Positions 4,024-63,865 of a DNA stretch of 64,000 nucleotides are shown piece after piece. Source of the stretch: Betaproteobacteria bacterium (GTDB lineage Bacteria > Pseudomonadota > Gammaproteobacteria > Burkholderiales > SG8-41); NCBI GenBank assembly GCA_016868035.1, contig VGID01000009.1, forward strand, positions 23,881 through 87,880, in the 5' to 3' direction. Each line of letters starts with the position of its first letter. The stretch's first letter is position 1. The position numbers and the translations under genes were made by a program. The notes beneath the pieces are model-generated. The model was not told where the DNA came from, made no database searches, and saw nothing but the letters and a program-made list of their open reading frames with translations.

Positions 4024-4050
4024 CCGGACGCGGACTACCACCGCGTCCGG
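4024..4050 (+). terminator. perfect 10-bp GC-rich hairpin just after the Bug stop codon (no U-tract)
   Basis: ccggacgcgg / actacca / ccgcgtccgg. Confidence 0.35.
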
Positions 4051-4051
4051 C

Positions 4052-4190
4052 GTTCAAGGTTCAAGGTTCAAGGTTCAAGGTTCAAGGTTCAAGGTTCAAG
4101 GTTCAAGGTTCAAGGTTCAAGGTTCAAGGTTGGAGCGCTACGCGCTTCAGCCGTTCTCACTTTGAACTTTGAACCTTGAACTTTGAACGC
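4052..4190 (+). repeat. heptad palindrome: (GTTCAAG)x11 perfect tandem array plus an inverted arm of ~4 CTTGAAC-like units
   Basis: Tandem units counted directly at 4052-4128; inverted arm ctttgaactttgaaccttgaactttgaac at ~4160-4190. Confidence 0.9.
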
Positions 4191-4213
4191 GGAACGCGCC
4201 GGCGGCGCGTTCC
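4191..4213 (-). terminator. GC-rich hairpin abutting the aldo/keto reductase stop codon (no U-tract)
   Basis: ggaacgcgcc ggc ggcgcgttcc. Confidence 0.35.
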
Positions 4214-5237: not shown

Positions 5238-5350
5238 CACGAGTGGCTCGCTACCCGAAGGCAAAAGTCCAAAGTCGGACGTCGAAAACATAGGCCGGTA
5301 ACGTAGCCTCACTTTCGCCTTTCGCCTTGCCTTCGGACTTCTGCCTTTGG
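5238..5350 (+). repeat. family-B intergenic repeat (CGAAAGT-type heptads around the core GGTAACGTAGCCTCAC), copy 1
   Basis: About 90% identical by eye to the reverse complement of 34645-34762 over the central ~90 nt. Confidence 0.75.
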
Positions 5351-9036: not shown

Positions 9037-9157
9037 GTTCCGGGTTCCGAGCTCAAAGTTCCGCGTTCAAAATCATGATCCTTCGTCAAGAACGTTGAAC
9101 CTTGAACTCCGAACGGGCGAAGCCCCCTTCGGAGTCACGACCCACGACTCACGATTC
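9037..9157 (+). repeat. family-A heptad palindrome (GTTC arms, loop, TTGAAC arms, CACGA tail)
   Basis: gttccgggttccgagctcaaagttccgcgttcaaaa / loop ..ccttcgtcaagaa / cgttgaaccttgaactccgaac / tail gtcacgacccacgactcacgattc. Confidence 0.75.
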
Positions 9158-17377: not shown

Positions 17378-17455
17378 GTGACGAGTAACGACTCACGAAT
17401 CACGACTCACGAACCACGAGTCACGAGTCACGAATGGCGACTGACGGCTGAGCGA
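17378..17455 (+). repeat. CACGAGT-type heptad tract
   Basis: gtgacgagtaacgactcacgaatcacgactcacgaaccacgagtcacgagtcacgaatgg. Confidence 0.75.
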
Positions 17456-20477: not shown

Positions 20478-20693
20478 TTAAGAACCGTTAACAAAATCAA
20501 GAAAAACTAGCCGCAGATACGCGCCGATCAAAATCGAGTAAGGCGTGAGCCGCAAGCAGTGAGCGGAAGAAAGTTGAAACTGGCATTCTCCTCACCGCTT
20601 ACCCCTTACCGCTTACCGGCTTTTTTATCTGCGTCCATCTGGGTGCGTTCATCGGCGGTTTCGAGCTTTCTGGGTTTTTTGATCGCGCTCTAA
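20478..20693. repeat. ~215-bp modular intergenic element, copy 2 (same ends, CGCTTAC-type palindromic core)
   Basis: Ends align with copies 1 and 3, but the core is replaced by a gtaaggcgtgag...ctcaccgcttac hairpin followed by a T-run. Confidence 0.6.
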
Positions 20694-24497: not shown

Positions 24498-24540
24498 GCG
24501 CGCTCGATAGACGAGGGATGAGGGACCCTCGCCCAGCGCG

Positions 24541-24655
24541 GGTTCCGGGTTTCGGGTTCAAAGTTCCGGGTCCAAGGGCGTGAGCCTTCCTCTGGAGCTT
24601 TGAACCTTGAACGTTGAACTCGCTACGGACCGAAGCACCCTCGCGAGTCACGAGC
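24541..24655 (+). repeat. family-A heptad palindrome
   Basis: ggttccgggtttcgggttcaaagttccgggtccaagg / loop / ctttgaaccttgaacgttgaac / tail gagtcacgagcac. Confidence 0.75.
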
Positions 24656-26801: not shown

Positions 26802-27248
26802 ATGAACAAATCCTTTGCGCGCCGCATCGCCGCAATGAACGCGATGTACCGGCTCTCCGCCCACGACCGCCCGACCCTGCCCGTGGACGTGGCAGACCGC
26901 CTGGTCAAATTCAAGGCCACGCTCCTCGACGAGGTGCATGAGATCGACCAGATCGTCGAGCTCTCGAAAAGCGGTGCGCCTGCAATCGACCTCGCCGTCG
27001 CAGTGGCGGACCTGCTGGGCGACATCGTGGTCTACTGCCGGTCCGAAGCGCTGAAGTACGGCCTGCCGCTGGAGGAAGTGCTCGACATCATCATGGACAG
27101 CAACGAGAGCAAGCTCGGCGCGGACGGCAGCCCGATCTACGACGCGAACGGCAAGTTCCTCAAGGGGCCGAATTACTGGAAGCCGGAACCGAGGATCAAG
27201 GCGCTGCTCGAGCAGCGCGGCCTTCCAGGGCGGAGGGATGAGGATTGA
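26802..27248 (+). CDS. MazG-like all-alpha NTP pyrophosphohydrolase family protein (tentative)
   Basis: ~148 aa helical protein with LLDEVHE and acidic motifs resembling MazG-like/phage pyrophosphatase proteins; its last codons and stop lie in the GAGGATT array. Confidence 0.45.
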   Translation: MNKSFARRIAAMNAMYRLSAHDRPTLPVDVADRLVKFKATLLDEVHEIDQIVELSKSGAPAIDLAVAVADLLGDIVVYCRSEALKYGLPLEEVLDIIMDSNESKLGADGSPIYDANGKFLKGPNYWKPEPRIKALLEQRGLPGRRDED

Positions 27249-27302
27249 GGATTGAGGATTGAGGATTGAGGATTGAGGATTGAGGATTGAGGATTGAGGA
27301 TT
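27240..27302 (+). repeat. (GAGGATT)x9 perfect tandem heptanucleotide array
   Basis: Counted directly; the first unit contains the TGA stop of the upstream CDS (27246-27248). Confidence 0.95.
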
Positions 27303-27340
27303 GAGGGTCGACAGTTCACGAGAACAGCTACGCTTTGTCA

Positions 27341-27400
27341 GTCACGCTCACGATACACGAACATCGAATCACGAGTCACGAGTCACCAGTCACGAGTCAC
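27341..27400 (+). repeat. CACGAGT-type heptad tract
   Basis: gtcacgctcacgatacacgaacatcgaatcacgagtcacgagtcaccagtcacgagtcac. Confidence 0.75.
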
Positions 27401-28217: not shown

Positions 28218-28340
28218 TTGTTCAGGGTTCAGGGCTCAAGGTTCCGGGTTCAAAGTCACGAGCCTTCGTCGGAAATGTTGAACTTTGAGCCTCGAACGTT
28301 GAACGTTGAACGGCGGACAAGGCAAAGGCCCCGCCGAGCC
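28218..28340 (+). repeat. family-A heptad palindrome
   Basis: ttgttcagggttcagggctcaaggttccgggttcaaag / loop tcacgagccttcgtcggaaa / tgttgaactttgagcctcgaacgttgaacgttgaac / spacer hairpin / cgtcacgggtcacg. Confidence 0.75.
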
Positions 28341-30694: not shown

Positions 30695-30723
30695 CGGATG
30701 ACGATTCACGACTCACGACTGAC
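30691..30723 (+). repeat. short CACGAGT-type heptad tract filling the intergenic spacer
   Basis: gtaacggatgacgattcacgactcacgactgac; contains the upstream TAA stop. Confidence 0.6.
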
Positions 30724-31920: not shown

Positions 31921-33423
31921 ATGGCACGCATCGCTGTCGGCGGATTTCACCACGAGACGAATTGCTTCGTGCCGGCACGCACCGATTTCGAGTATTTCGC
32001 CGCTCACCGCGACCGCCCTCCCCTGGTGCGCGGACCCGACGTGATCAAGTGGCTGTCCAACACCAGCTTTGCGCTTTCAGGCTTCCTCGCGCAGATGGGA
32101 TCCGCGCACGACTACGTGCCGCTGGTATGGGCGAGCGGAGGCGCGGGAGGCTATGTGACGCGCGACGCGTTCGAGCGCATCACCGGCGAGCTGGTCGGAA
32201 CCCTGTCGAGGGGCATGCCGGTGGATGCCGCTTACCTCGACCTGCACGGCGCAATGGTCACCGAGGACTTCGAGGACGCGGAGGGCGAGCTCCTGCGGCG
32301 GGTGCGCGCTGCCGTGGGCGAGCGCGTTCCGATCGTGATCAGCCTCGACTACCATGCCAACGTGACCCCGGAGATGGTGCGCTACACCGACGGGCTCGTC
32401 GGCTACCAGACCTACCCGCACGTCGACCGCAAGGAAACCGGGCAGCGCGCGGCGAAGGTGCTTGCGGCGGTGATCTCGCGCGGGCGCCCGGGCGGGCGGG
32501 CGCTGCACAAGACGTCGTTCCTGATTCCTCTGAATGCGCAATGCACGATGATGGAGCCGTCGAAAACGATCATCGAGAAAGCCGCGCGCCTCGAGGGCGG
32601 CGACGTGCTCAACGTGTCGTATCTCGCGGGCTTCCCGCCTTCGGACCTCTACCATTGCGGGCCCTCGGTGGTGGTGCACGCCTACACGCAGGCGCAGGCG
32701 GACGCGGCGGCCGACGCGCTCGCGCGGGAGGTTGCGCTGCGGGAACCCGAGTTTGCGCAGCCGCTGCTCGAGCCGGACGACGCGGTGCGCGAGGCGATGC
32801 GCATCGCCGCCGACGCGCGCCGCCCGGTAGTCCTCGCGGACACGCAGGATAACCCGGGCGCCGGGGGCAGCGGGGACACCACGGGCCTGCTCGAAGCGCT
32901 GGTGCGCAACGGGGCGCAGCAGGCCGCGCTCGGGATCTTCTGCGATGCGGAAGCCGCGGCGGCCGCGCACCGCGCCGGAGAGAATGCCGAGGTCTCGATC
33001 GCGCTCGGCGGCAAGTCCGGACCCGAAGGCGTCATGCCCTACGCTGCGAAATTTCGCGTGGCGCGGCTCGGCGACGGCCGCATGCGCACCACCGGCCCCT
33101 CGGTGGGCGGCCGGGACATCGACCTGGGCCCGATGGCGCTGCTGCGCGTCGGCGGCGTGAGCGTCGTGGTGAGCAGCAAGCGCATGCAGGCGCACGACCA
33201 GGCTCCGTTCCGCCATCTCGGCGTCGAGCCGAAAGAGCAGAAAATCCTGGCGCTCAAGAGCACGGTGCACTTCCGCGCCGATTTCCAGCCGATCGCGCAG
33301 GAAGTCCTGGTCGTTCTGGCGCCGGGCGGGTACGTCGCGGACGCCACGAAATACCCGTTCAAGAGGCTGCGTCCCGGCGTGCGCCTTTACCCACTGGGAC
33401 CGGAGTTCGCCGGCCCGCGCTGA
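31921..33423 (+). CDS. M81 family metallopeptidase (MlrC-like)
   Basis: MARIAVGGFHHETNCF N-terminus characteristic of MlrC-like proteins; 500 aa. Confidence 0.85.
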   Translation: MARIAVGGFHHETNCFVPARTDFEYFAAHRDRPPLVRGPDVIKWLSNTSFALSGFLAQMGSAHDYVPLVWASGGAGGYVTRDAFERITGELVGTLSRGMPVDAAYLDLHGAMVTEDFEDAEGELLRRVRAAVGERVPIVISLDYHANVTPEMVRYTDGLVGYQTYPHVDRKETGQRAAKVLAAVISRGRPGGRALHKTSFLIPLNAQCTMMEPSKTIIEKAARLEGGDVLNVSYLAGFPPSDLYHCGPSVVVHAYTQAQADAAADALAREVALREPEFAQPLLEPDDAVREAMRIAADARRPVVLADTQDNPGAGGSGDTTGLLEALVRNGAQQAALGIFCDAEAAAAAHRAGENAEVSIALGGKSGPEGVMPYAAKFRVARLGDGRMRTTGPSVGGRDIDLGPMALLRVGGVSVVVSSKRMQAHDQAPFRHLGVEPKEQKILALKSTVHFRADFQPIAQEVLVVLAPGGYVADATKYPFKRLRPGVRLYPLGPEFAGPR

Positions 33424-33424
33424 A

Positions 33425-33465
33425 GAGTAACGGGGCACGATTCACCAGTCACCAGTCACGATTTT
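33425..33465 (+). repeat. short CACGAGT-type heptad tract
   Basis: gagtaacggggcacgattcaccagtcaccagtcacgatttt. Confidence 0.6.
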
Positions 33466-33482
33466 GAAGGAAAGCGCTGCCT

Positions 33483-33842
33483 ATGCCCATTACCGGACAA
33501 TGGATCTTTACGGCCGCCATGGACGTGGACCCGGACAAGGAGGCTCTGTTCAACGAGGTCTACGACAAGGAGCACCTGCCGTCCATCAAGAAGGTGCCGG
33601 GCGTGATCTCGGCCACGCGCGTGAAGCTCGATACGCTACGCGTCACCATCGGCGGCGAGACCCGGACCGTCGAGCCGCAAGGCGCGCCCCGGTATGCCGC
33701 GATCTTCGAGCTCGAGAGCCCGGACGTGCTGGTGAGCGCCGCGTTCGCACATGCGGTCGAGCAGGGACGCTGGCCGACGCAGGTGCGGCCCTATACGCGC
33801 AACCGGCGGCATACGCTGCACCGCGTGATCAGCAGCGAGTGA
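33483..33842 (+). CDS. small conserved hypothetical protein (EthD/DUF4286-like, tentative)
   Basis: 119-aa ORF with good coding character; family assignment uncertain. Confidence 0.4.
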   Translation: MPITGQWIFTAAMDVDPDKEALFNEVYDKEHLPSIKKVPGVISATRVKLDTLRVTIGGETRTVEPQGAPRYAAIFELESPDVLVSAAFAHAVEQGRWPTQVRPYTRNRRHTLHRVISSE

Positions 33843-33851
33843 CGGGCGCCC

Positions 33852-33980
33852 CGTTCCATGTTCGGAGTTCCGAGTTCAAGGTGATGGGTCTTCGTCGGAA
33901 ACTCTGAACATCGGACGTTGAACCTTGAACGTTGAACCTTGAACTACGAGCCGGGCAGAGACCGCTGGCGAGTCACGATT
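33852..33980 (+). repeat. family-A heptad palindrome
   Basis: cgttccatgttcggagttccgagttcaagg / loop tgatgggtcttcgtcggaaa / ctctgaacatcggacgttgaaccttgaacgttgaaccttgaac / tail gagtcacgattcacg, which overlaps the exonuclease stop. Confidence 0.75.
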
Positions 33981-34644: not shown

Positions 34645-34795
34645 AACCCCAAGTCGGAAGGCGAAAGTCGAAAGGCGAAAGTGAGGCTACGTTACCGCAC
34701 TATACTTTCGACTTCCGACTTTCGACTTTTCCCTTCGGGTAGCGAGTCACTCGTCACCAGTCACCAGTCACGAGCAACGGGCAACGAGAAGTGCT
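34645..34795 (-). repeat. family-B intergenic repeat, copy 2 (inverted relative to copy 1), followed by a CACCAGT/CACGAG heptad tract
   Basis: The reverse complement of 34645-34762 aligns with 5238-5350; the tract is gtcaccagtcaccagtcacgagcaacgggcaacgag. Confidence 0.75.
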
Positions 34796-39338: not shown

Positions 39339-39395
39339 GATGACGAACTACGACTCACGATTCACGATTCACGAGTAACGAGTAACGAACGATCG
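39339..39395 (+). repeat. CACGAGT-type heptad tract
   Basis: gatgacgaactacgactcacgattcacgattcacgagtaacgagtaacgaacg. Confidence 0.75.
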
Positions 39396-42940: not shown

Positions 42941-43048
42941 CGTTCAGGGTGCGGGGTTCGGAGTCCGGTGTTAACAAACCCACCGCGGCAATTTCGAACG
43001 CTGAACCCCGAACGCCGCCAGGCCCCTTCCGAGCCACGAGTCACGAGC
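42941..43048 (+). repeat. family-A heptad palindrome (degenerate), in a divergent promoter region
   Basis: cgttcagggtgcggggttcggagtccgg / loop / cgaacgctgaaccccgaacg / tail gagccacgagtcacgagcc. Confidence 0.65.
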
Positions 43049-43147
43049 CGGCGCGGCCCGCCCCCCCAATTGACCGGCTTAGTGGTAGGCTACTGCCCGC
43101 CGCTCGCGCCCCACCCCGGGTGGCGCGACAACAGAGGAGAACAGGCC

Positions 43148-47354: not shown

Positions 47355-50300
47355 TTGATGCTCCATCCCCAGCCGCTCCCGGTGCCGGGGAGCCGTGCAT
47401 GTACCACGCCGTTGCACGGCTCCTCCGACGCGCTCGCACTCGCGCAAATCGCGCGTGCGCGGCGTCCGCTCGCCGTGCTCACCGCCACGGCGCAAGACGC
47501 GCAGCGCCTGCTCGAGGAGCTGCCTTTCTTCGACCCGGGGCTGAAGGTCCGTCTGTTCCCCGACTGGGAAACGCTGCCCTACGACCAGCTCTCGCCCCAT
47601 CACGACCTGGTCTCCGAGCGGCTTGCCACCCTCTACGAGCTCACGCAGCGAGCGCTCGACGTCGCGCTCGTGCCGGTGACGACCGCGCTCTACCGTCTTG
47701 CACCCGCCGATTACCTTGCCGCGCGCTCATTTCACTTCCGCCAGGGCGCGCGGCTTGCACCGGAAGCGCTGCGCGCCCAGTTCGTGACCGCGGGCTACAC
47801 GCACGTGACGCAGGTCGTCGCACCGGGCGAATACTGGGTGCGCGGGGGACTCATCGACCTCTTCCCGACGGGCAGCGCGGTGCCCTACCGCATCGAGCTC
47901 GACGACGAGCTCGTGGCGAGCATTCGCAGCTTCGACGTGGACACCCAGCGCTCGATCTACAAGGTGAACGAGGTGCGGCTGCTGCCCGCGCGCGAGTTTC
48001 CGTTGGACGAGGAGGGCCAGACGCGGTTCCGCCGCAACTTCCGGGAGCGGTTCGAGGGCGACCCCTCCAGGAGCCGCGTCTACAAGGACGTCTCCAAGGG
48101 CGTGCCCTGCGCGGGAATCGAGTACTACCTTCCGCTCTTCTTCGAGAGCACCGCGCGCATCACCGATTACCTGCCGCCGGAGACGCTGCTTTGCGTGCAG
48201 CCGGGGCTGCAGCACGCGATCGAGCAGTTCTGGAGCGACACGCATGCGCGCTACGCGATGCTGCGCGGCGACCGCGCCAGCCCGGTGCTCCCGCCGAATG
48301 ATCTGTTCCTCACCACCGACGAATTCTTCGGCGCGATCAAGCCCTACGCGCGCATAGAGCTGCGCACCGTTCAAGGTTCCACGTTCAATGTTCAAGGTTC
48401 AACATTCAAAGATCGAGATTCGAACGCGCAACCCGCAACCCTGGACCTTGAACCCGGAACCTTGAACCTTGAACCCGGAACTGCGGCGGGCGCGGCGACG
48501 GCCGCGTTGCCGCCGCTGGCGGTCGAGCGTCGGGCGGACGACCCGCTGCACCGGCTGCGCGCGTTCGCCGCCGCATTTCCCGGGCGCGTGCTGGTGCTCG
48601 CGGAAGGCGCCGGGCGGCGCGAGACCATGCTCGAGTACTTCCGCGAGTACCGCCTCGAGCCCGCGCCGGTCGAGGGCTACGCGCAGGCGCTCGCCCGCGC
48701 CGAGCGCCTGCTGCTCGCCGTGGGCCCGCCGCACGCGGGCTTCGTGCTTCCCGATCCCGCGCTTGCGGTCGTCACCGAGAACGAGCTCTACGCCCACCAG
48801 GCGCGCCCGCGGCGCGAGCGCGACGGGGCGCGCCGCGTATCCGCCGAGAACATGCTGCGCGACCTCTCCGAGGTCAAGGTAGGCGACCCGGTGGTGCATG
48901 AAATCCACGGCGTGGGCCGCTACCAGGGCCTCGTCACTCTGGACCTCGGCGAAGGCGAGACCGAGTTCCTTCAGCTCGAGTACGCCGGCGCCGACCGGCT
49001 CTACGTGCCGGTCTCGAGCCTGCATCTCGTCGGCCGCTACAGCGGCGCGCCCGCGGATGCCGCGCCCCTGCACCAGCTCGGCAGCGGGCAATGGGAGAAG
49101 GCGCGCCGCAAGGCGGCGCGGCAGGTGCGCGACACGGCGGCGGAGCTGCTCGAGCTCTACGCGCAGCGCGCGGCGCGGCGCGGCCATGCGTTCAACGTGA
49201 CGCCGCACGACTTCGAGGCATTCTGCGACGACTTCCCGTTCGAGGAGACCCACGACCAGGCCTCGGCGGTGAACGCCGTGGTGGAGGACCTGCGCAGCGG
49301 CAAGCCGATGGATCGGCTGATCTGCGGCGACGTCGGCTTCGGCAAGACCGAGGTCGCGCTGCGCGCGGCGTTCGTGGCGGTGGACGACGGCAAGCAGGTG
49401 GTGGTGCTGGTGCCGACCACGCTGCTCGCCGAGCAGCATTTCAACACCTTTTCCGACCGCTTCGCCGAGTGGCCGGTGAGAATCGCGGAGCTCTCGCGCT
49501 TCCGCTCCGGCAAGGAGACGGCCGAGGCCCTCTCCGGGCTCGCCGAAGGCCGCATCGACATCGCGATCGGCACCCACAAGCTGCTCTCGCGTGACGTGAA
49601 GCTGAAGAACCTGGGGCTGGTGATCGTGGACGAGGAGCACCGCTTCGGCGTGCGGCACAAGGAGCGGTTGAAGGCGCTGCGCGCCGAAGTGGACGTGCTC
49701 ACCCTCACCGCGACGCCGATCCCGCGCACGCTCGCGATGGCGCTCGAGGGCCTGCGTGATTTCTCGGTGATCGCCACCGCTCCCGAGCGGCGGCTCGCGA
49801 TCAAGACCTTCGTGGCGCGCCACAGCAGGGCGTTGATCCGCGAGGCGGCGCTGCGCGAATTGAAGCGCGGCGGGCAGATCTACTATCTGCACAACGACAT
49901 CGATACCATCGGTCAGGCCGAGCAGATGCTCGCGAAGCTGCTGCCGGAAGCGCGCATCCGCGTCGCGCACGGCAGGATCCGCGAGCGCGAACTCGAGCAC
50001 GTGATGCGCGACTTCTACCAGGGCCGCTTCAACGTCCTCCTGTGCACGACCATCATCGAGAGCGGCATCGACGTTCCGGCCGCCAACACCATCATCATCC
50101 ACCGCGCCGACAAGTTCGGGCTCGCGCAATTGCACCAGCTGCGCGGGCGCGTCGGGCGCTCGCACCACCAGGCCTACGCCTACCTGCTGCTGCCCGACGA
50201 GGGCGCCATCACCGCGCAGGCAAAGAAGCGGCTGGACGCGATCCAGATGATGGAGGAGCTCGGCTCGGGCTTTTTCCTCGCGATGCACGACCTCGAGATC

Positions 50301-50882
50301 CGGGGCGCGGGCGAGGTGCTGGGCGAAGCGCAAAGCGGGGAGATGCACGAAGTGGGCTTCAGCCTCTACTGCGCGATGCTCGACACCGCGGTGCGCGCGC
50401 TGAAGCAGGGCGCAGAGCCCGATCTCGCCGCGCCGCTTGGCGTCACCACCGAGATCAACCTGCACGTGCCGGCGCTGCTCCCTGCCGATTACTGCGGCGA
50501 TGTGCACGAGCGGCTCGTGCTCTACAAGCGGTGCGCCAATTGCGGCACGCCCGAGGAGCTCGACGCGCTGCGCGAGGAGCTCGTGGACCGCTTCGGTCTG
50601 CTGCCCGAGCCCGCGCGCACGCTGCTCGAGACCCACCGGCTGCGCATCCTCGGCAAGCCGCTCGGGATCGCGCGCATCGACGCGACCGACTCGGCGATCC
50701 AGCTGCAGTTCGTGAAGCAGCCCCCGATCGAGCCGGTCAAGGTGCTCGACCTCGTGCAAAGCCGCCGCAACTACCGCCTCGCCGGGCAGGACCGGCTGCG
50801 CATCGAGCTCGCGCTGCCCGACGTGCGCGCGCGGGTGGCGGCGATCCGCAAGGTGTTCTCGGAGCTCGCGCCCTCCGGCTGA
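47355..50882 (+). CDS. mfd: transcription-repair coupling factor
   Basis: 1175 aa; RID region (HGVGRY..LEYA..D.LYVP), superfamily-2 helicase motifs (GDVGFGKTEVA, DEEHRFG, TATPIPRT), and TRG/C-terminal domain. Confidence 0.95.
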   Translation: MMLHPQPLPVPGSRACTTPLHGSSDALALAQIARARRPLAVLTATAQDAQRLLEELPFFDPGLKVRLFPDWETLPYDQLSPHHDLVSERLATLYELTQRALDVALVPVTTALYRLAPADYLAARSFHFRQGARLAPEALRAQFVTAGYTHVTQVVAPGEYWVRGGLIDLFPTGSAVPYRIELDDELVASIRSFDVDTQRSIYKVNEVRLLPAREFPLDEEGQTRFRRNFRERFEGDPSRSRVYKDVSKGVPCAGIEYYLPLFFESTARITDYLPPETLLCVQPGLQHAIEQFWSDTHARYAMLRGDRASPVLPPNDLFLTTDEFFGAIKPYARIELRTVQGSTFNVQGSTFKDRDSNAQPATLDLEPGTLNLEPGTAAGAATAALPPLAVERRADDPLHRLRAFAAAFPGRVLVLAEGAGRRETMLEYFREYRLEPAPVEGYAQALARAERLLLAVGPPHAGFVLPDPALAVVTENELYAHQARPRRERDGARRVSAENMLRDLSEVKVGDPVVHEIHGVGRYQGLVTLDLGEGETEFLQLEYAGADRLYVPVSSLHLVGRYSGAPADAAPLHQLGSGQWEKARRKAARQVRDTAAELLELYAQRAARRGHAFNVTPHDFEAFCDDFPFEETHDQASAVNAVVEDLRSGKPMDRLICGDVGFGKTEVALRAAFVAVDDGKQVVVLVPTTLLAEQHFNTFSDRFAEWPVRIAELSRFRSGKETAEALSGLAEGRIDIAIGTHKLLSRDVKLKNLGLVIVDEEHRFGVRHKERLKALRAEVDVLTLTATPIPRTLAMALEGLRDFSVIATAPERRLAIKTFVARHSRALIREAALRELKRGGQIYYLHNDIDTIGQAEQMLAKLLPEARIRVAHGRIRERELEHVMRDFYQGRFNVLLCTTIIESGIDVPAANTIIIHRADKFGLAQLHQLRGRVGRSHHQAYAYLLLPDEGAITAQAKKRLDAIQMMEELGSGFFLAMHDLEIRGAGEVLGEAQSGEMHEVGFSLYCAMLDTAVRALKQGAEPDLAAPLGVTTEINLHVPALLPADYCGDVHERLVLYKRCANCGTPEELDALREELVDRFGLLPEPARTLLETHRLRILGKPLGIARIDATDSAIQLQFVKQPPIEPVKVLDLVQSRRNYRLAGQDRLRIELALPDVRARVAAIRKVFSELAPSG
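48369..48482 (+). repeat. family-A heptad palindrome embedded in frame (38 codons) within mfd
   Basis: gttcaaggttccacgttcaatgttcaaggttcaacattcaaa ... ccttgaacccggaaccttgaaccttgaacccgg; translated as VQGSTFNVQGSTFKDRDSNAQPATLDLEPGTLNLEPGT. Confidence 0.75.
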
Positions 50883-50946
50883 ACCGCGTCCGCGATTCCG
50901 CACGCCCGCCGCCTGTGAAACAATGAGGCGGGCGGCCTTGCAAACG

Positions 50947-53721
50947 ATGAGTCAACCGACGACAGCTGCGGCCCCGGCAGAGCACGAGCAACTGCGCGAA
51001 GACATCCGGCTGCTCGGGGGCGTGCTCGGGCGCGTGTTGCGCGAGCAGAAAGGCGAGGAAGGCTATGCCTGCATCGAAACGGTGCGCCAGACCGCGGTGC
51101 GCTTCCGCCGCGGGAAGGACACGGAGGTCGCGGCCGCGCGTGCCGAGCTCGAGCGCCTGCTGAACAGCCTGCCGATCGAGCGCGTGCTCGACGTGGTGCG
51201 CGCCTTCAGCTACTTCCTGCAGTTCGTGAACCTGTGCGAGGACGCGCATGCGGCGCGGCAGCTGCGGGAGCAGGCCGGCGCACGGCCCGCACCCGGCACG
51301 CTCGCACGGACGCTCGAGGCGCTGCACCGCGCGGGCGTGGACGGGGCGGCGCTCCTCGCGTGGAGCGGGCGGGCGCAAATCTGCCCGGTGCTCACCGCGC
51401 ACCCGACCGAGGTGTAGCGCAAGAGCATTCTCGACTGCCAGCGCGAGATCAACCGGCTCATGCAGTGGCGCGAGCGCGTCGCCCTGACCGCCCGCGAGAT
51501 GGAGGAGCTCGATGCCGAGCTCCACCACCAGATCCTCACGCTGTGGCAGACCGCGATGCTGCGGCTCAACAAGCTGCGCGTCATGGACGAGATCGAGAAC
51601 GGGCTCGCCTACTACCGCTACACGTTCTTCGAGCAGCTGCCGCGGCTCTACGCCGAGCTCGAAGACCGGCTGCGCGCCGCCGGGGTGCTCGCGGCCGGTG
51701 CGGAGCTGCCGGGCTTTCTCACCATGGGCTCGTGGATCGGCGCCGACCGCGACGGAAATCCCTACGTGACCGCGGAGGTGCTGCGCACGGCATCCGACCG
51801 GCATGCGCGGCTCGCCTTCGGGCACCTGCTCGATGAGGTGCACCGGCTCGGCGCGGAGCTCTCGCTTTCGTCGCGGCTGGTAGCGGTGTCCGCGGAGCTG
51901 GCCGCGCTCGCGAAGCGCGCCCAGGACCGCTCCCCCTTCCGCCGCGACGAGCCCTACCGGCAGGCGCTGATCGGCGTCTACGCGCGGCTCGCCGCCACCG
52001 CGCGCGCGCGCGCGGATCTCGCCCCGGCGCGAGAACCGCATGCGCAAGCGCCTCCCTATGCCGGAGCGGACGAGCTCCTCGCCGATCTCGACGTCATCCG
52101 CGACTCGCTCCTCGCCAACGGCTCGGCCGATCTGGCGAACCGGAGGCTGCGCCGGCTGCGCCGTGCCGTGCGCGTGTTCGGATTTCACCTCGCCGCCCTC
52201 GACATGCGCCAGAGCGCGAACGTGCACGAAGCGGTGGTGGCGGAGCTGCTCGCGCGCGCAGGAACGCACCCGGACTACGCGCAGGCGCCCGAGGCCGAGC
52301 GCATTGCGCTGCTCGCCCGCGAGCTCGCGAGCCCGCGCCCGCTCGCATCTCCTCACCTCGCCTATTCGGAGCAAACGCGGAGCGAGCTCGACATCCTGAC
52401 GGTGGCCGCCGGGGTGCACCGGCGCTTCGGCGGCGCGGCGCTGCCCAACTATGTCATCTCCCAATGCAATGCGGTGAGCGATCTGCTCGAGGTCGCCGTG
52501 CTGCTGAAGGAAGCGGGTCTCATGCGGCCCGGGTCCCCGCCCCAGATCGCGCTCAACATCGTGCCGCTGTTCGAGACCATAGACGACCTGCGGCACTGCG
52601 GGCGCATCATGAACGAGGCGCTCGAACACCCGGCCTATCGCGGCCTGGTCGCCGCGCGCGACGGGCTGCAGGAAGTCATGCTCGGCTACTCCGACAGCAA
52701 CAAGGACGGCGGCTACCTCGCCTCGAACTGGGCGCTCAACGTCGCGCAAAGGGAGCTCGTCGAGGTGTTCAGCCACCATGGCGTTCGGCTGTGCCTGTTT
52801 CACGGGCGCGGCGGCACGATCGGGCGCGGCGGCGGCCCGACCTACGAGGCGATCCTCGCCCAGCCGAAAGGCAGTGTCACCGGCGCGATCCGCGTAACCG
52901 AGCAGGGCGAGACCATCGCGAGCAAGTATTCCGACCCGGAACTCGGACGCCGCAGTCTCGAGGCGCTCGTCGCCGCCACGATCGAGGCGAGCCTGCTGGA
53001 AGAGCCGGCGCCCGGCGGGCGCAGGGCCGAGTTCCGCGACGCGATGGAGCAGCTCGCCGAGCATGCGCGCCGCGCCTATCGGGAGCTCGTTTACGAGACG
53101 CCGGGATTCAGCGATTACTTCCGCGCCGCAACGCCGATCACCGAGATCGCGGAGCTCAACATCGGCAGCCGGCCCGCCTCGCGCAAGCCCTCGCGCCGCA
53201 TCGAGGAGCTGCGCGCGATTCCCTGGGTATTCAGCTGGGGGCAGTGCCGCGTCCTGCTGCCCGGCTGGTTCGGTTTCGGCGCCGCGGTCGAGCGCTTCCT
53301 CGCGGAGGATCGCGGAGGACTCGCCCTGCTCAAGGCGATGTACCGCGAATGGCTCTTCTTCCGCACCGTGCTCGACAACATGGAGATGGTGCTCGCCAAG
53401 GCCGACCTGGGAGTCGCATCGCGCTACGCCGCGTTGGTGAAGGACGAGGCACTGCGCGAGCGCGTGTTCAGGCGCATCCGGGCCGAATACGAGCTGACGG
53501 TCGCGCACCTGCGCGCAATCACGGGGCACGCCGCTCTGCTCGAAACCAACCCGGGCCTCGCGCGCAGCATCCGCGACCGCACGCCCTACCTCGATCCGCT
53601 CAACCACCTGCAGATCGAGCTGCTGCGCCGCTACCGCCAGGGACAGACCGACGAGCTCACGCAACGCGGCATCCACCTCACGATCAACGGCCTCGCGGCG
53701 GGGCTTCGGAACAGCGGCTGA
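50947..53721 (+). pseudogene. ppc: phosphoenolpyruvate carboxylase with a single in-frame TAG (51415-51417)
   Basis: ORFs 50923..51417 and 51460..53721 are in the same frame. The TAG falls in VLTAHPTEV*RKSILD, directly after the catalytic TAHPTE motif. The downstream motifs GYSDSNKDGG, FHGRGGTIGRGGGP and C-terminal INGLAAGLRNSG are intact. Confidence 0.85.
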
Positions 53722-59066: not shown

Positions 59067-59294
59067 CTTAGGACCGGTAACAAAATCAAGAAGTATTAAC
59101 CGCAGATAAACGCCGATACACGCCGATGAAAAACAGGAAAATGGACAGGATTTTCAGGATTAACGAGATTCGATCGAGGGCTTTGATCTCGTAAATCTTG
59201 TTAATCCTGTCTGTTTTGGTTTGATCTTATCCGCGTCCATCTGCGTTCATCGGCGGTTTCAAGCCTTTTGGGTCTTTTTAATACGAGCTCTTAG
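59067..59294. repeat. ~230-bp modular intergenic element, copy 3 (ACAGGATT-type core)
   Basis: Aligns end to end with copy 1. Has 10-bp phased units cgcagataaa/cgccgataca/cgccgatgaa, with the complementary set on the right arm. Confidence 0.6.
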
Positions 59295-59307
59295 ACGGGA
59301 ACTTTAC

Positions 59308-61559: not shown

Positions 61560-61564
61560 GGGAA

Positions 61565-61707
61565 GGCGGTACGCAGTAAGCAGTGAGCGGTCAGCAGCAG
61601 CTTCACAAGAATCATAGCAAAACCACCTCAACGGCCCGCCTCGGATTGGCGAGCACCTCATCCAGGTCGAACAGGGATTTTACCGCTTACCGCTTACCGC
61701 TCACGGC
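61565..61707. repeat. GTAAGCG/CGCTTAC heptad inverted-repeat element
   Basis: Left arm ggtacgcagtaagcagtgagcgg; right arm ttaccgcttaccgcttaccgctcac; ~85-nt interior; arms resemble the core of copy 2 at 20530-20625. Confidence 0.6.
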
Positions 61708-61742
61708 TAACCAGCCTGGTAGAGCGGCATCACGCGGGCCGA

Positions 61743-61957: not shown

Positions 61958-63865
61958 GTCGGAGTAGGAATGGCCATTGCTGATCACCCCCTCCACAGAT
62001 CCGGACGTGCGGCTTTCCCGCATCCGGCTCTTGCCTCAGGGGATGACGCCAAGGCGGCGGAGAGGATAGGGATGACAGAGGCGGACCGGAGGAAGCCAGA
62101 GCTCGAGCAGGCGGTACATACGCTCCCAGCCCGGACGACCTTTGTGGCTGCGCCGGCACAGCGCGCGATACCACAGCCACCCGATGCGGAAGCGAAACAG
62201 CCGCAACGCCGGGCCGTTCATGGGCACCCCGTAGTAGGCAAAGTGTCCACGCACGACTGCACCCAACCACTGTCCCACCGTCGGAATGGGCTCATGCAGG
62301 CGTCGGCGCAGTTCGGTTTTCACCTCAGCGAGCTTCGCCTGCAAGCGCTTGCGCATCGTCTGCCGCAGGACCGTGAAACGGCCATTGCTTCGCTTGGTCG
62401 CGCAGATGTGCGTGAAGCCAAGGAAGTTGAACGTCTCAGGCTTGCCCAAGCCGGCCTTCGTGCGGCGTTTGGCCGCATAGGGACCAAACTCCAGCAGCCG
62501 GGTCTTTTCGGGATGCAGCTCCAAGCTGAACTTGGCCAATCGCTCGGCCAGCTCGGCACGAAACCGCTCGGCATCGGACTTCACCCGGAATCCGAGCACG
62601 ATGTCGTCGGCGTAGCGCACGACGATCATCTCGCCGCGCGCATGCTTGCGACGCCACGCCCGCACCCACAGGTCAAACGCGTAGTGAAGGTAGATATTGG
62701 CCAGAAGCGGCGATGCGCTGCCGCCCTGCGGCGTACCTTCCTCCACGCGCGTGCGCTTGCCACCCTCCAGCACACCGGCGTTCAGCCACTTCTGGATGAG
62801 CCGCACGATGCGCCGATCCGCAATGCGATGCTCGATGAACTTCACCAGCCATCCGTGATCGATCGAATCGAAGAAACCACGGATGTCCACATCGAGCACC
62901 CAGTTCACCGGTCTCGTGAGCAGTCCCGCGTAGAGCGCGTCCAAGCAATCGTGCTGGCTGCGTCCGGGGCGAAACCCATACGAGAACCCGAGGAAGTCCG
63001 TTTCGTAGATGGCGTTCAACACCTCGACGGCGGCGCGCTGGACGATCTTGTCCTCCAGCGCGGTAACGCCCAGCGGGCGCTGCCCGCCACCGTCTTTGGC
63101 GATGTAGACCCTGCGAACGGGCTTGGCCCGGTACGCACCGCGCTTCAAGCGCGCAGCGAGATTCTGGAGGTGCTCTTCCAGCGCCTCGCCGTACCGCCAC
63201 CACGTCTGCCCGTCCACGCCCGGGGCGGCTTCCTTCTTGAGACTGAAGTAAGCCTCCCGCAGTGTGTCGAGGCTGTAGACATGGTGCAGCAGTGCGGTGA
63301 ACCGCATCGTCCTATCTTTCTTTGCTGCCTGACGCACCCGCTCGAGCGCACTGCGCACGCTCACCCGGCTTTGCATCCGGAGCGCGTTTTGCTCGCTCAG
63401 GTTCCCTTTGGCCAGACCCCTTCCCTCCATCCCCTCCGCCGCCGGTCGCCCGGCATTGTCCGGAGACTTCTGCGGTACTGCGGGTCTGTCCGACTTCCCC
63501 TGTCCGTTCATCATCGGCGTACGTCCTTGGACTTCCCGATGCGGCCCGCTGCTCTGGGCAGACAAGGGACCTCCCGGCTCCCGCGCAAGGTGTTTCCATG
63601 CGTGCACGGGGTCTTTGACCGCGCAGGGTCCGTCCGTCTCTCGCGATATCGAGACAGCCGGTGTTGCCTTCCGCTTCTCCTTACAGCGTCGGCACCCCGA
63701 AGGGAGTTGCTTTCGCGGCTGAATACCCAGCCCGCACGTACCCCTGTCAACGCTTCGGCGCCGCCCTCGCGAGCGGCTCCGCATGACTCAGGGCCGGTGT
63801 GGGTCGCTACACCTTCACCGTATGACTCTTTCATTCACAACATCTCGCCGGTTTAGCCGGCGCAC
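61958..63865 (-). mobile_element. group II intron (~1.9 kb) with intron-encoded protein
   Basis: 5' end GTGCGCC.. on the minus strand at 63865. Domain V GAGCCGGATGCGGGAAAGCCGCACGTCCGG is at ~61999-62030. A domain VI-like hairpin with a bulged A precedes ..GAC at ~61958 (3' boundary approximate). Confidence 0.85.
62036..63514 (-). CDS. group II intron reverse transcriptase/maturase (no endonuclease domain evident)
   Basis: RT motifs including RYADDIVLGF (YADD) and the X/maturase region FLGFTH; start at MMNGQGKSDRP. Confidence 0.9.
   Translation of the reverse strand: MMNGQGKSDRPAVPQKSPDNAGRPAAEGMEGRGLAKGNLSEQNALRMQSRVSVRSALERVRQAAKKDRTMRFTALLHHVYSLDTLREAYFSLKKEAAPGVDGQTWWRYGEALEEHLQNLAARLKRGAYRAKPVRRVYIAKDGGGQRPLGVTALEDKIVQRAAVEVLNAIYETDFLGFSYGFRPGRSQHDCLDALYAGLLTRPVNWVLDVDIRGFFDSIDHGWLVKFIEHRIADRRIVRLIQKWLNAGVLEGGKRTRVEEGTPQGGSASPLLANIYLHYAFDLWVRAWRRKHARGEMIVVRYADDIVLGFRVKSDAERFRAELAERLAKFSLELHPEKTRLLEFGPYAAKRRTKAGLGKPETFNFLGFTHICATKRSNGRFTVLRQTMRKRLQAKLAEVKTELRRRLHEPIPTVGQWLGAVVRGHFAYYGVPMNGPALRLFRFRIGWLWYRALCRRSHKGRPGWERMYRLLELWLPPVRLCHPYPLRRLGVIP

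Follow-up and report, generated by a model that had tools for sequence, protein, structure and literature searches.

The mfd gene in the 64-kb stretch of DNA analysed here (the window), which derives from an uncultured lineage of Burkholderiales/Betaproteobacteria, contains a block of 38 codons at 48369-48482 that is a palindrome of tandem 7-nt units. The block belongs to a dispersed family (family A) of heptad palindromes able to form hairpins, and its other copies in this genome are intergenic. In the best explanation, to which we give a probability of about 0.8, a heptad palindrome of the intergenic type was inserted into an interdomain linker of Mfd, the transcription-repair coupling factor; the linker is permissive and acts as a sink for the palindromic repeats of the clade, and the insertion was filtered for frame and tolerated. 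A copy would have landed in, or been copied into, the DNA that codes for the flexible junction between domains D1b and D3, and in a needed gene only versions that are in frame and without a stop codon would have survived. The block would then be translated as a low-complexity, probably disordered loop of 38 residues that is tolerated by Mfd and nearly neutral for the protein. The host gene and the parts of the block are as follows.

47358 to 50882, forward strand: coding sequence of mfd (transcription-repair coupling factor), 1174 residues, the host gene; from the open reading frame (ORF) list, the identical protein P0001, Pfam and the E. coli structures.
48369 to 48482, forward strand: in-frame heptad palindrome, 38 codons, Mfd residues 338-375; from tandem-repeat, inverted-repeat, fold and composition analyses.
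48369 to 48410, forward strand: left arm, six GTTCNNN heptads arranged as two 21-nt super-units (86% identity), translated as VQGSTFNVQGSTFK.
48411 to 48439, forward strand: central region of degenerate heptads (GATCGAG ATTCGAA CGCGCAA CCCGCAA C), the hairpin loop.
48440 to 48481, forward strand: right arm, six NNNGAAC-type heptads, translated as LDLEPGTLNLEPGT.

The block is 114 nt long. Its translation, VQGSTFNVQGSTFKDRDSNAQPATLDLEPGTLNLEPGT, is preceded by ...ARIELRT and followed by AAGAATAALPPLAVERR, and matches exactly the peptide quoted in a preliminary description of this DNA, which had reported an in-frame palindrome of 38 codons in the mfd ORF. The units have the form GTTCNNN on the left and NNNGAAC on the right. 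The left arm reads GTTCAAG GTTCCAC GTTCAAT GTTCAAG GTTCAAC ATTCAAA, and the right arm CCTGGAC CTTGAAC CCGGAAC CTTGAAC CTTGAAC CCGGAAC. As inverted repeats the arms extend over 33-34 nt with a complementarity of 79-84%. Tandem Repeats Finder detects a period of 7 in both arms (75-77% matches) and a period of 21 at 90% matches. The RNA of 48360-48490 is predicted to fold with -49.6 kcal/mol, compared with a mean of -32.8 for shuffled sequences (z = -4.3, 0 of 200 shuffles as stable), in agreement with the long mRNA hairpin that the preliminary description had expected in the middle of the ORF. The composition of the block is foreign to mfd. Its GC content is 0.50 and its GC content at third codon positions (GC3) is 0.42; the rest of the gene has 0.70 and 0.92, respectively, and the lowest GC3 among 1098 other 38-codon windows of mfd is 0.74. 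The predicted tryptic peptides of the block are TVQGSTFNVQGSTFK and DSNAQPATLDLEPGTLNLEPGTAAGAATAALPPLAVER.

Short-read assemblers can mis-join at dispersed repeats, and such a block might be a chimera induced by the repeat during assembly. This is extremely improbable. Two separately deposited assemblies agree base for base over the block, no seam is visible in the frame or in the Mfd sequence on either side, and dozens of independent metagenome-assembled genomes (MAGs) have analogous repeats at exactly this codon position. Over 9525 nt, scaffold Ga0194131_10000254 of JGI 3300020193 matches the window without a difference; contig k141_378279 of ENA ERZ27247963 differs from the window by a single base, located outside mfd.

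The ORF list begins mfd at a TTG (47355-50882, forward strand), and the identical 1174-residue protein P0001 begins at the ATG at 47358. In a HMMER search against solved structures the protein matches the E. coli Mfd structures 2EYQ and 6X26 with E = 0. Residues 8-339 correspond to residues 9-342 of E. coli Mfd and residues 381-1172 to residues 354-1143. The alignment breaks exactly at the block, where there are 42 residues here and 12 in E. coli, whose linker is indeed the shorter, as the preliminary description had stated. All domains of a full Mfd are present above the Pfam cut-offs: UvrB_inter of the UvrB-homology module (126-214), MFD_D3 (403-477), RID (CarD_TRCF_RID, 507-562), the translocase (DEAD and Helicase_C, 632-935) and TRCF (1035-1127). 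The frame is kept and the downstream part of Mfd is intact, as had been claimed. The block had been placed between the UvrB-homology module and the RNA polymerase interaction domain. It does follow the former; it does not adjoin RID, because D3 intervenes. By alignment to the E. coli protein it lies at the D1b/D3 junction, the domains being named as in the description of 2EYQ.

The window was scanned for the heptad dimer GTTCAAGGTTCAA with up to two mismatches, and 100 shuffled sequences served as the null. There are 37 matches, compared with 0.48 expected and a maximum of 3 in any shuffle. Ten of them lie in the mfd block, and the rest (4052-4188, 9095, 24600, 28220-28311 and 33918-33944) lie in five intergenic copies.

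4048 to 4195: intergenic family-A copy between convergent genes, GTTCAAG x11, a spacer and CTTGAAC-like x5; RNA fold z = -9.4.
9040 to 9112: intergenic family-A copy between convergent genes.
24537 to 24622: intergenic family-A copy between convergent genes; RNA fold z = -5.2.
28218 to 28313: intergenic family-A copy; RNA fold z = -4.1.
33855 to 33946: intergenic family-A copy downstream of the gene ending at 33842.

By a gene map based on GC3, three of the five copies are between convergent genes and two between same-strand genes. The arms of the mfd block align with them, and the block has the complete architecture of the family: GTTCNNN units, a spacer, NNNGAAC units and a hairpin. Its assignment to family A in the preliminary description therefore stands on clear nucleotide similarity. 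The copies at 9040-9112, 28218-28313 and 33855-33946 have the loop motif YCTTCGTCRGAA in common, and a variant of it is present at 24537. Another heptad palindrome of the window, AAGTCGA/TCGACTT, lies at 34651-34729 and has a second, inverted copy at 5239-5328; the segments 5239-5328 and 34665-34754 agree at 90% over 90 nt, with the loop included. The shared loop of family A and the likeness of the AAGTCGA copies accord better with the spread of whole elements than with local slippage alone. Heptad arrays in general are a hallmark of this genome, since 43 of the 101 tandem-repeat rows of the window have a period of 7, 14 or 21.

A sign of a reading-frame filter is seen in the right arm. A pure CTTGAAC array gives an in-frame TGA at every third unit. 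In mfd the phase that would read TGA is occupied by CCGGAAC in two well-formed units and by CCGCAAC in a third, degenerate one, and the three CTTGAAC units occupy the two stop-safe phases. CCGGAAC at every third unit therefore removes the in-frame TGA and creates a super-period of 21 nt, and period 21 fits better than period 7 because CCGGAAC fills the TGA-prone phase. The same phase pattern is found in seven family-A orthologues (the window, L083 and L001-L005). In the purest intergenic copy, 4048-4195, every one of the six frames contains stops, as do most frames of the other intergenic copies. The GGAAC of the CCGGAAC unit pairs with GTTCC in the left arm; this is no proof of compensation, because intergenic copies also carry GGAAC-type variant units.

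Length changes at the site point in the same direction. The homologues P0054 and P0056, 98.8% identical, differ by an indel of 7 residues (three heptads) in the left arm, which is what frame-filtered slippage would be predicted to produce. None of the 37 translated orthologous inserts has an in-frame stop. In none of the 80 fetched loci is the match interrupted at the insert, and the shortened matches end at contig ends. A filter for frame and stop codons would account for CCGGAAC at every third unit, for the 21-nt super-period in both arms and for the length steps of three heptads.

The same data bear on the possibility that mfd is phase variable. A change of one heptad, whether gained or lost, would put the gene out of frame and turn Mfd off, which is the behaviour of a contingency locus such as neuO of E. 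coli K1. Coding heptanucleotide tracts are known to switch (neuO, PMC13001214), and the three-heptad difference between the 98.8% identical homologues shows that slippage does occur. Nevertheless, phase variation of mfd is very improbable. The units are degenerate, with no more than two identical ones in a row, so slippage should be rare, and neither stops in the 37 inserts nor interruptions at the insert in the 80 loci were seen.

The linker was compared, between ARIEL and LPPLAVERR, in 120 Mfd homologues that are 73-81% identical to this protein, and in the DNA of 37 orthologous loci. Where the best relatives are named, they are Betaproteobacteria or Burkholderiales MAGs. The linker varies from 12 to 143 residues, with a median of 34. 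By a rough assessment by eye, about two-thirds of the 120 linkers fit the peptide patterns of four heptad units and of GC-rich REP-like hairpins; HPSSLIPHPS, HESRITNH, SPVSGLQSPVS and GERVGVRG are examples of the repeat peptides. At the DNA level the 37 loci contain palindromes of GTTCAAG, GTTCAAA, GTTCCGA, GTTCCAG, GTTTCCA, GTTTCAA, GTCACGA, GTGGATG and GGGACTA units, one-armed arrays of CATCCCT, CTCAGCA, AATCACT, CGCCTCT and CTCAACA heptads and, in some of them, GC-rich REP-like hairpins, all at the same junction. The linker has 12-21 residues in outgroups, namely Nitrosospira, some Burkholderiales MAGs and most loci of Usitatibacter and Casimicrobiaceae, and the long linker is therefore the derived state. 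Thus the segment is not an order-wide feature of Mfd that lacks similarity to the intergenic repeats, a finding that would have spoken against insertion. The lineage specificity that had been expected is of a particular kind: the exact 38-codon block was found in this genome only, and in most close relatives the site is filled by other palindromic repeats.

Close relatives differ in what occupies the junction, and its content changes quickly compared with the protein. Loci L024 and L028 have flanks that are 95.9% identical and linkers of 31 and 80 residues, the difference consisting of added GC-rich hairpins, always in frame. The inserts of L002 and L006, with flanks 85.8% identical, are unrelated. 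On a neighbour-joining tree of the flanks (about 270 residues, hence of low resolution) the families of occupants are interspersed. In an alignment of 60 sequences, 52 of the 109 columns that are absent from this protein fall at residues 343-375, and mean column identity over the rest of Mfd is 77%. A minor second site of extra columns follows residue 466, with indels in P0041 and P0089. Overall, the D1b/D3 junction appears, from these comparisons of sequences, to be a long-lived sink for palindromic repeats across the clade, in which one family is replaced by another between close relatives. The closest relative, P0002 (81% identity), does not share synteny with the window, so the orthologous intergenic copies are not comparable. 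The 38 codons hold as the length of the palindrome, not as a proven length of the insertion.

Two further groups of loci show related arrangements. In L022-L028, which belong to another Burkholderiales clade (e.g. L028:3001-4038), the junction contains an AT-rich segment (…NINKNNNLQ…) and 0-3 GC-rich hairpins. Genomes with 92-96% identity in the flanks differ in whether they have these hairpins, CCCTCTCCCCGC…GCGGGGAGAGGG and GGGGTGAGGG…CCCTCACCCC. In two Sulfuricellaceae-type MAGs (L031:2615-2652 and L033:1392-1423) four CCTCACT units lie in frame within D3, between HGGF and FITE.ELYA. The array adds IPHSSLLTPH to D3 at the minor second site.

The block had been described earlier as a tolerated or exapted surface loop. 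Exaptation of the peptide would mean that a longer, flexible D1b-D3 linker is useful to the Mfd of this clade and that the repeats are its raw material. Most relatives do keep a long linker (the median of 34 residues compares with about 12 in E. coli, measured over a slightly different span, and with 12-21 in the outgroups). The peptide itself lacks conservation at the protein level, being derived from unrelated families, 12-143 residues long and with a mean column conservation of 0.18 at residues 351-375. Furthermore, some close relatives make do with only 12-19 residues (P0085, P0117 and P0100), and the codon usage of the block is not adapted. These properties make exaptation improbable, and of the two terms used earlier it is 'tolerated' that the data support.

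Conservation of nucleotides is a different matter. Across the seven family-A orthologues GTTC/GAAC recurs unchanged at intervals of 7 nt, the three intervening bases vary, and the phase of the heptads relative to the codons is identical. The shared phase was considered as a means of telling a single ancient insertion from repeated ones; it does not discriminate between them, because only one phase is free of stops. Ten of the 29 third-codon positions of the block are invariant and seven of those ten are A or T. In the flanks 58 of 272 third positions are invariant and none of these is A or T (Fisher p = 3.8e-8). Selection on the protein cannot explain this pattern. It requires that the nucleotides themselves be constrained, that other copies homogenise the block, or that re-insertion be recent or repeated. 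The central regions are less uniform: the window and L083, its closest relative, have related centres (GATTCGA..GCGC in L083), the inserts of L001 and L003 are clearly alike as peptides, and the centres are unrelated between other groups.

Because the A/T third positions are conserved, it is a serious possibility, though in our view a minority one, that the nucleotide sequence itself has a function or is actively homogenised. In its specific form, which we regard as rather unlikely, the block would be kept as a nucleic-acid element, either an RNA hairpin that tunes the stability, processing or translation of mfd mRNA, or an array of GTTC at 7-bp phasing that is bound by a factor; the protein would do no more than tolerate it. 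The invariant GTTC/GAAC and the A/T third positions agree with this, as do hairpins that are more stable than those of shuffled sequences in L001 (z = -4.0) and L005 (z = -5.6) as well as in the window, and intergenic copies that keep AT-rich units within a genome of 67% GC. In the closest relative, L083, the left arm has partly decayed toward GC and the fold is less exceptional (z = -2.4, 4 of 200 shuffles as stable). Other lineages have one-armed arrays, unrelated families or nothing at the site, and an identical pattern would arise, with no function in mfd, from homogenisation or from re-insertion in the sole stop-free phase.

Several observations weigh against the tolerated, frame-filtered insertion that we prefer. 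The loop motif YCTTCGTCRGAA is absent from the mfd copy, as it is from the 4048 copy and from L083. By inspection, the six window copies show neither a target-site duplication nor a terminal motif beyond GTTC...GAAC; no transposase is linked to family A, and no insertion footprint was found. The invariance of A/T at third positions is at odds with a relic that decays purely passively in a genome with a GC3 of 0.92. An AlphaFold model built with 60 homologues agrees with a disordered loop, for which the preliminary description had suggested a structure prediction, inasmuch as residues 340-377 are coil with a predicted local distance difference test score (pLDDT) below 50, next to a D3 domain with 84-92. 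As a whole the model is of poor quality (mean pLDDT 56, predicted template modelling score 0.37), and many real domains also have low values, so it lends the loop weak support.

The GTTCAAG unit is not confined to this clade. A scan of metagenome contigs for exact GTTCAAGGTTCAAG-N15-45-CTTGAACCTTGAAC found palindromes in at least 120 contigs, which range from 37 to 71% GC. Among the matches listed, 6 of 123 palindromes lie in frames without a stop for 80 codons or more to either side, and five of these frames are recognisable genes, with GTTCAAG/CTTGAAC palindromes in frame as follows.

L173:7048-7093: in PriA, just before the Walker A motif.
L160:4032-4077: in arginyl-tRNA synthetase.
L128:8841-8908: in the terminase large subunit.
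L176:8613-8659: in a DNA methylase, the array being about 80 residues long.
L111:3056-3113: in a flavoprotein.

The contigs with these five palindromes have 55-65% GC, and the palindromes are translated in the same way as in mfd (VQGSRFK..., ...LNLEP...). A rough count of the orientation of the genes flanking the metagenomic copies gives 21 in tandem, 5 convergent and 3 divergent, with another 5 copies lying within ORFs. A tentative and more far-reaching proposal is that palindromes with GTTC/GAAC at 7-nt phasing are an undescribed class of elements present across phyla, either active mobile DNA or cis-elements read by a factor, which repeatedly enter, or are kept in, permissive linkers of large enzymes that act on nucleic acids (Mfd, PriA, terminase, DNA methylase and arginyl-tRNA synthetase). 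The D1b/D3 junction would then be a specific landing pad and the mfd copy would be under selection at the nucleotide level. A literature search, with subscription journals outside its coverage, found no description of this heptad family or of the Mfd hotspot.

Units of the linker repeats in relatives recur as intergenic arrays in the window, for example CACGAGT (17381, 27365 and 39350) and a GGAT-type unit (27239). CACGAGT / GTCACGA is a second heptad family with one-armed intergenic arrays at 17381-17434, 27365-27400, 30701-30720, 33420-33473, 34745-34788, 39350-39388 and 43030-43049. The CACGAGT-type unit also fills the Mfd linker elsewhere, as in L008 and in the 'HESRITNH' peptides. A perfect array of TGAGGAT x9.7 at 27239-27306 comes directly after the gene that ends at 27248 and is followed by a spacer and a CACGAGT array, the two arms being non-complementary. 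A GCGGTAA/TTACCGC palindrome with a spacer of about 85 nt (61561-61712) adjoins a group II intron on the reverse strand (61958-63829), in which Rfam group-II-D1D4-6 is at 63609-63829 (191 bits) and domain V/VI at 61958-62032 (55 bits). At the Rfam gathering thresholds no heptad element has a match, and the group II intron is the sole match.

Two features of the window are unrelated to the heptads or distant from them. An AT-rich repeat of about 250 nt occurs at 1775-2025 and 59067-59295 (84-91% identity), with a fragment at 20481-20528. It holds internal repeats of 9-10 nt, such as ACAGGATTT/TAATCCTGT, and looks like a MITE (a miniature transposable element with inverted repeats). The ppc gene (50923-53721, forward strand) has an in-frame TAG at 51415-51417, inside the conserved ...LTAHPTEV*RKS... 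and present in both metagenome assemblies. It splits phosphoenolpyruvate carboxylase into called genes of 164 and 753 residues, both PF00311, and could reflect a pseudogene, a population variant or read-through.

Palindromic repeats that lie in frame in housekeeping genes are known mostly from Rickettsia and from a few MITEs. Here the same process would operate in free-living, high-GC Betaproteobacteria of soil and freshwater, with a repeat made of tandem heptads. The Mfd linker amounts to a natural experiment in which one linker of a conserved 1174-residue enzyme is filled, refilled and resized by several families, and in which the reading-frame filter is directly visible in the stop-avoiding CCGGAAC, the super-period and the three-heptad steps. 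For annotation, VQGSxF..., LEPGTLN, HPSSLIPHPS and HESRITNH within proteins are best regarded as translated repeats, not as domains. The D1b/D3 junction seems to accept large insertions and may be useful for tagging. The persistence of GTTC at 7-nt phasing in a gene with GC3 0.92 suggests that the arrays are either read by something or continually homogenised, a question that is testable.

Some known sequences that resemble the heptads can be set aside. The core sites of integron attC have the consensus GTTRRRY / RYYYAAC; GTTCAAG departs from it at positions 4 and 7, and attC sites do not form tandem arrays. The role of mfd in repair brought the LexA box of Alphaproteobacteria, GTTC-N7-GTTC, into consideration; it was rejected on account of the N3 spacing here, the genome-wide arrays and the betaproteobacterial host. 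Paired DNA-uptake sequences of the Neisseria type do not fit the tandem 7-nt arrays with variable units.

Like REP, BIME and REPIN sequences and MITEs, family A consists of short, hairpin-forming, high-copy and mostly intergenic repeats. A REP or REPIN is a GC-rich palindrome of 20-40 nt, whereas the family-A arms are 35-80 nt long, richer in AT than the genome and arranged as microsatellite-like arrays. According to PMC3733652, a GTAG/CGTC tag defines two large REP super-families; all six window copies begin with GTTC and end with GAAC instead. No parent insertion sequence or RAYT gene was seen in the 64-kb window, for which no systematic annotation of all ORFs was made. As in MITEs, the arms act as inverted repeats; by inspection, no direct repeat flanks the six copies. 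MITEs and ERIC elements occur inside genes as in-frame fusions, according to PMC10969869 and PMC2229807; host proteins tolerate such fusions (PMC10969869), and in this the mfd block behaves alike.

Closer in architecture are the paired tandem hepta- and octanucleotide arrays on opposite strands in Geobacter metallireducens, some of which are within genes (PMC2700814). As in family A, units of 7-8 nt are followed by a variable spacer and by units on the other strand. The consensus units MTYCTGA, GGACCGG and GTTGCTYN differ from those of family A. Binding sites for regulators or regulatory RNAs were proposed for these arrays, untested in that study, which did not analyse frame or stop avoidance (PMC2700814).

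The neuO gene of E. coli K1 is translated in full only when the number of heptanucleotide repeats is divisible by three (PMC13001214). It shares with the mfd block 7-nt repeats in a coding region and a frame that is kept only at multiples of three. The neuO tract is perfect, has 3-53 units, lies at the 5' end and switches at a high rate; the mfd arms are degenerate (75-77% at period 7), palindromic and in the middle of a gene, and all 37 orthologous inserts are open in frame. The cyanobacterial STRRs are reportedly also tandem heptanucleotide arrays dispersed in the genome, in another phylum and with other units. Their intragenic case, as far as the title of Vioque 1997 (cited in PMC2858038) conveys it, is in the RNase P RNA gene of heterocyst-forming cyanobacteria, and thus in an RNA gene rather than in a protein frame.

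In behaviour the block also resembles the Rickettsia palindromic elements (RPEs), which the passages of PMC10969869 on these elements describe as palindromic repeats of about 100-150 bp, located in frame in unrelated housekeeping genes and giving the host protein an extra stretch of peptide that it tolerates. The mfd block has the same properties: it is a palindromic repeat of 114 nt in frame in Mfd, with sister copies in PriA, arginyl-tRNA synthetase, a terminase and a DNA methylase. The hosts differ, Rickettsia in one case and a free-living, high-GC betaproteobacterial lineage in the other. RPEs have a fixed consensus, whereas the arms of the mfd block are tandem 7-nt units in variable number, and the refilling of one linker by several repeat families, seen here, is not part of the description of RPEs in those passages. 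The mfd block thus seems to behave like an RPE, to which it is likened by behaviour and not by class, homology between the two not being expected.

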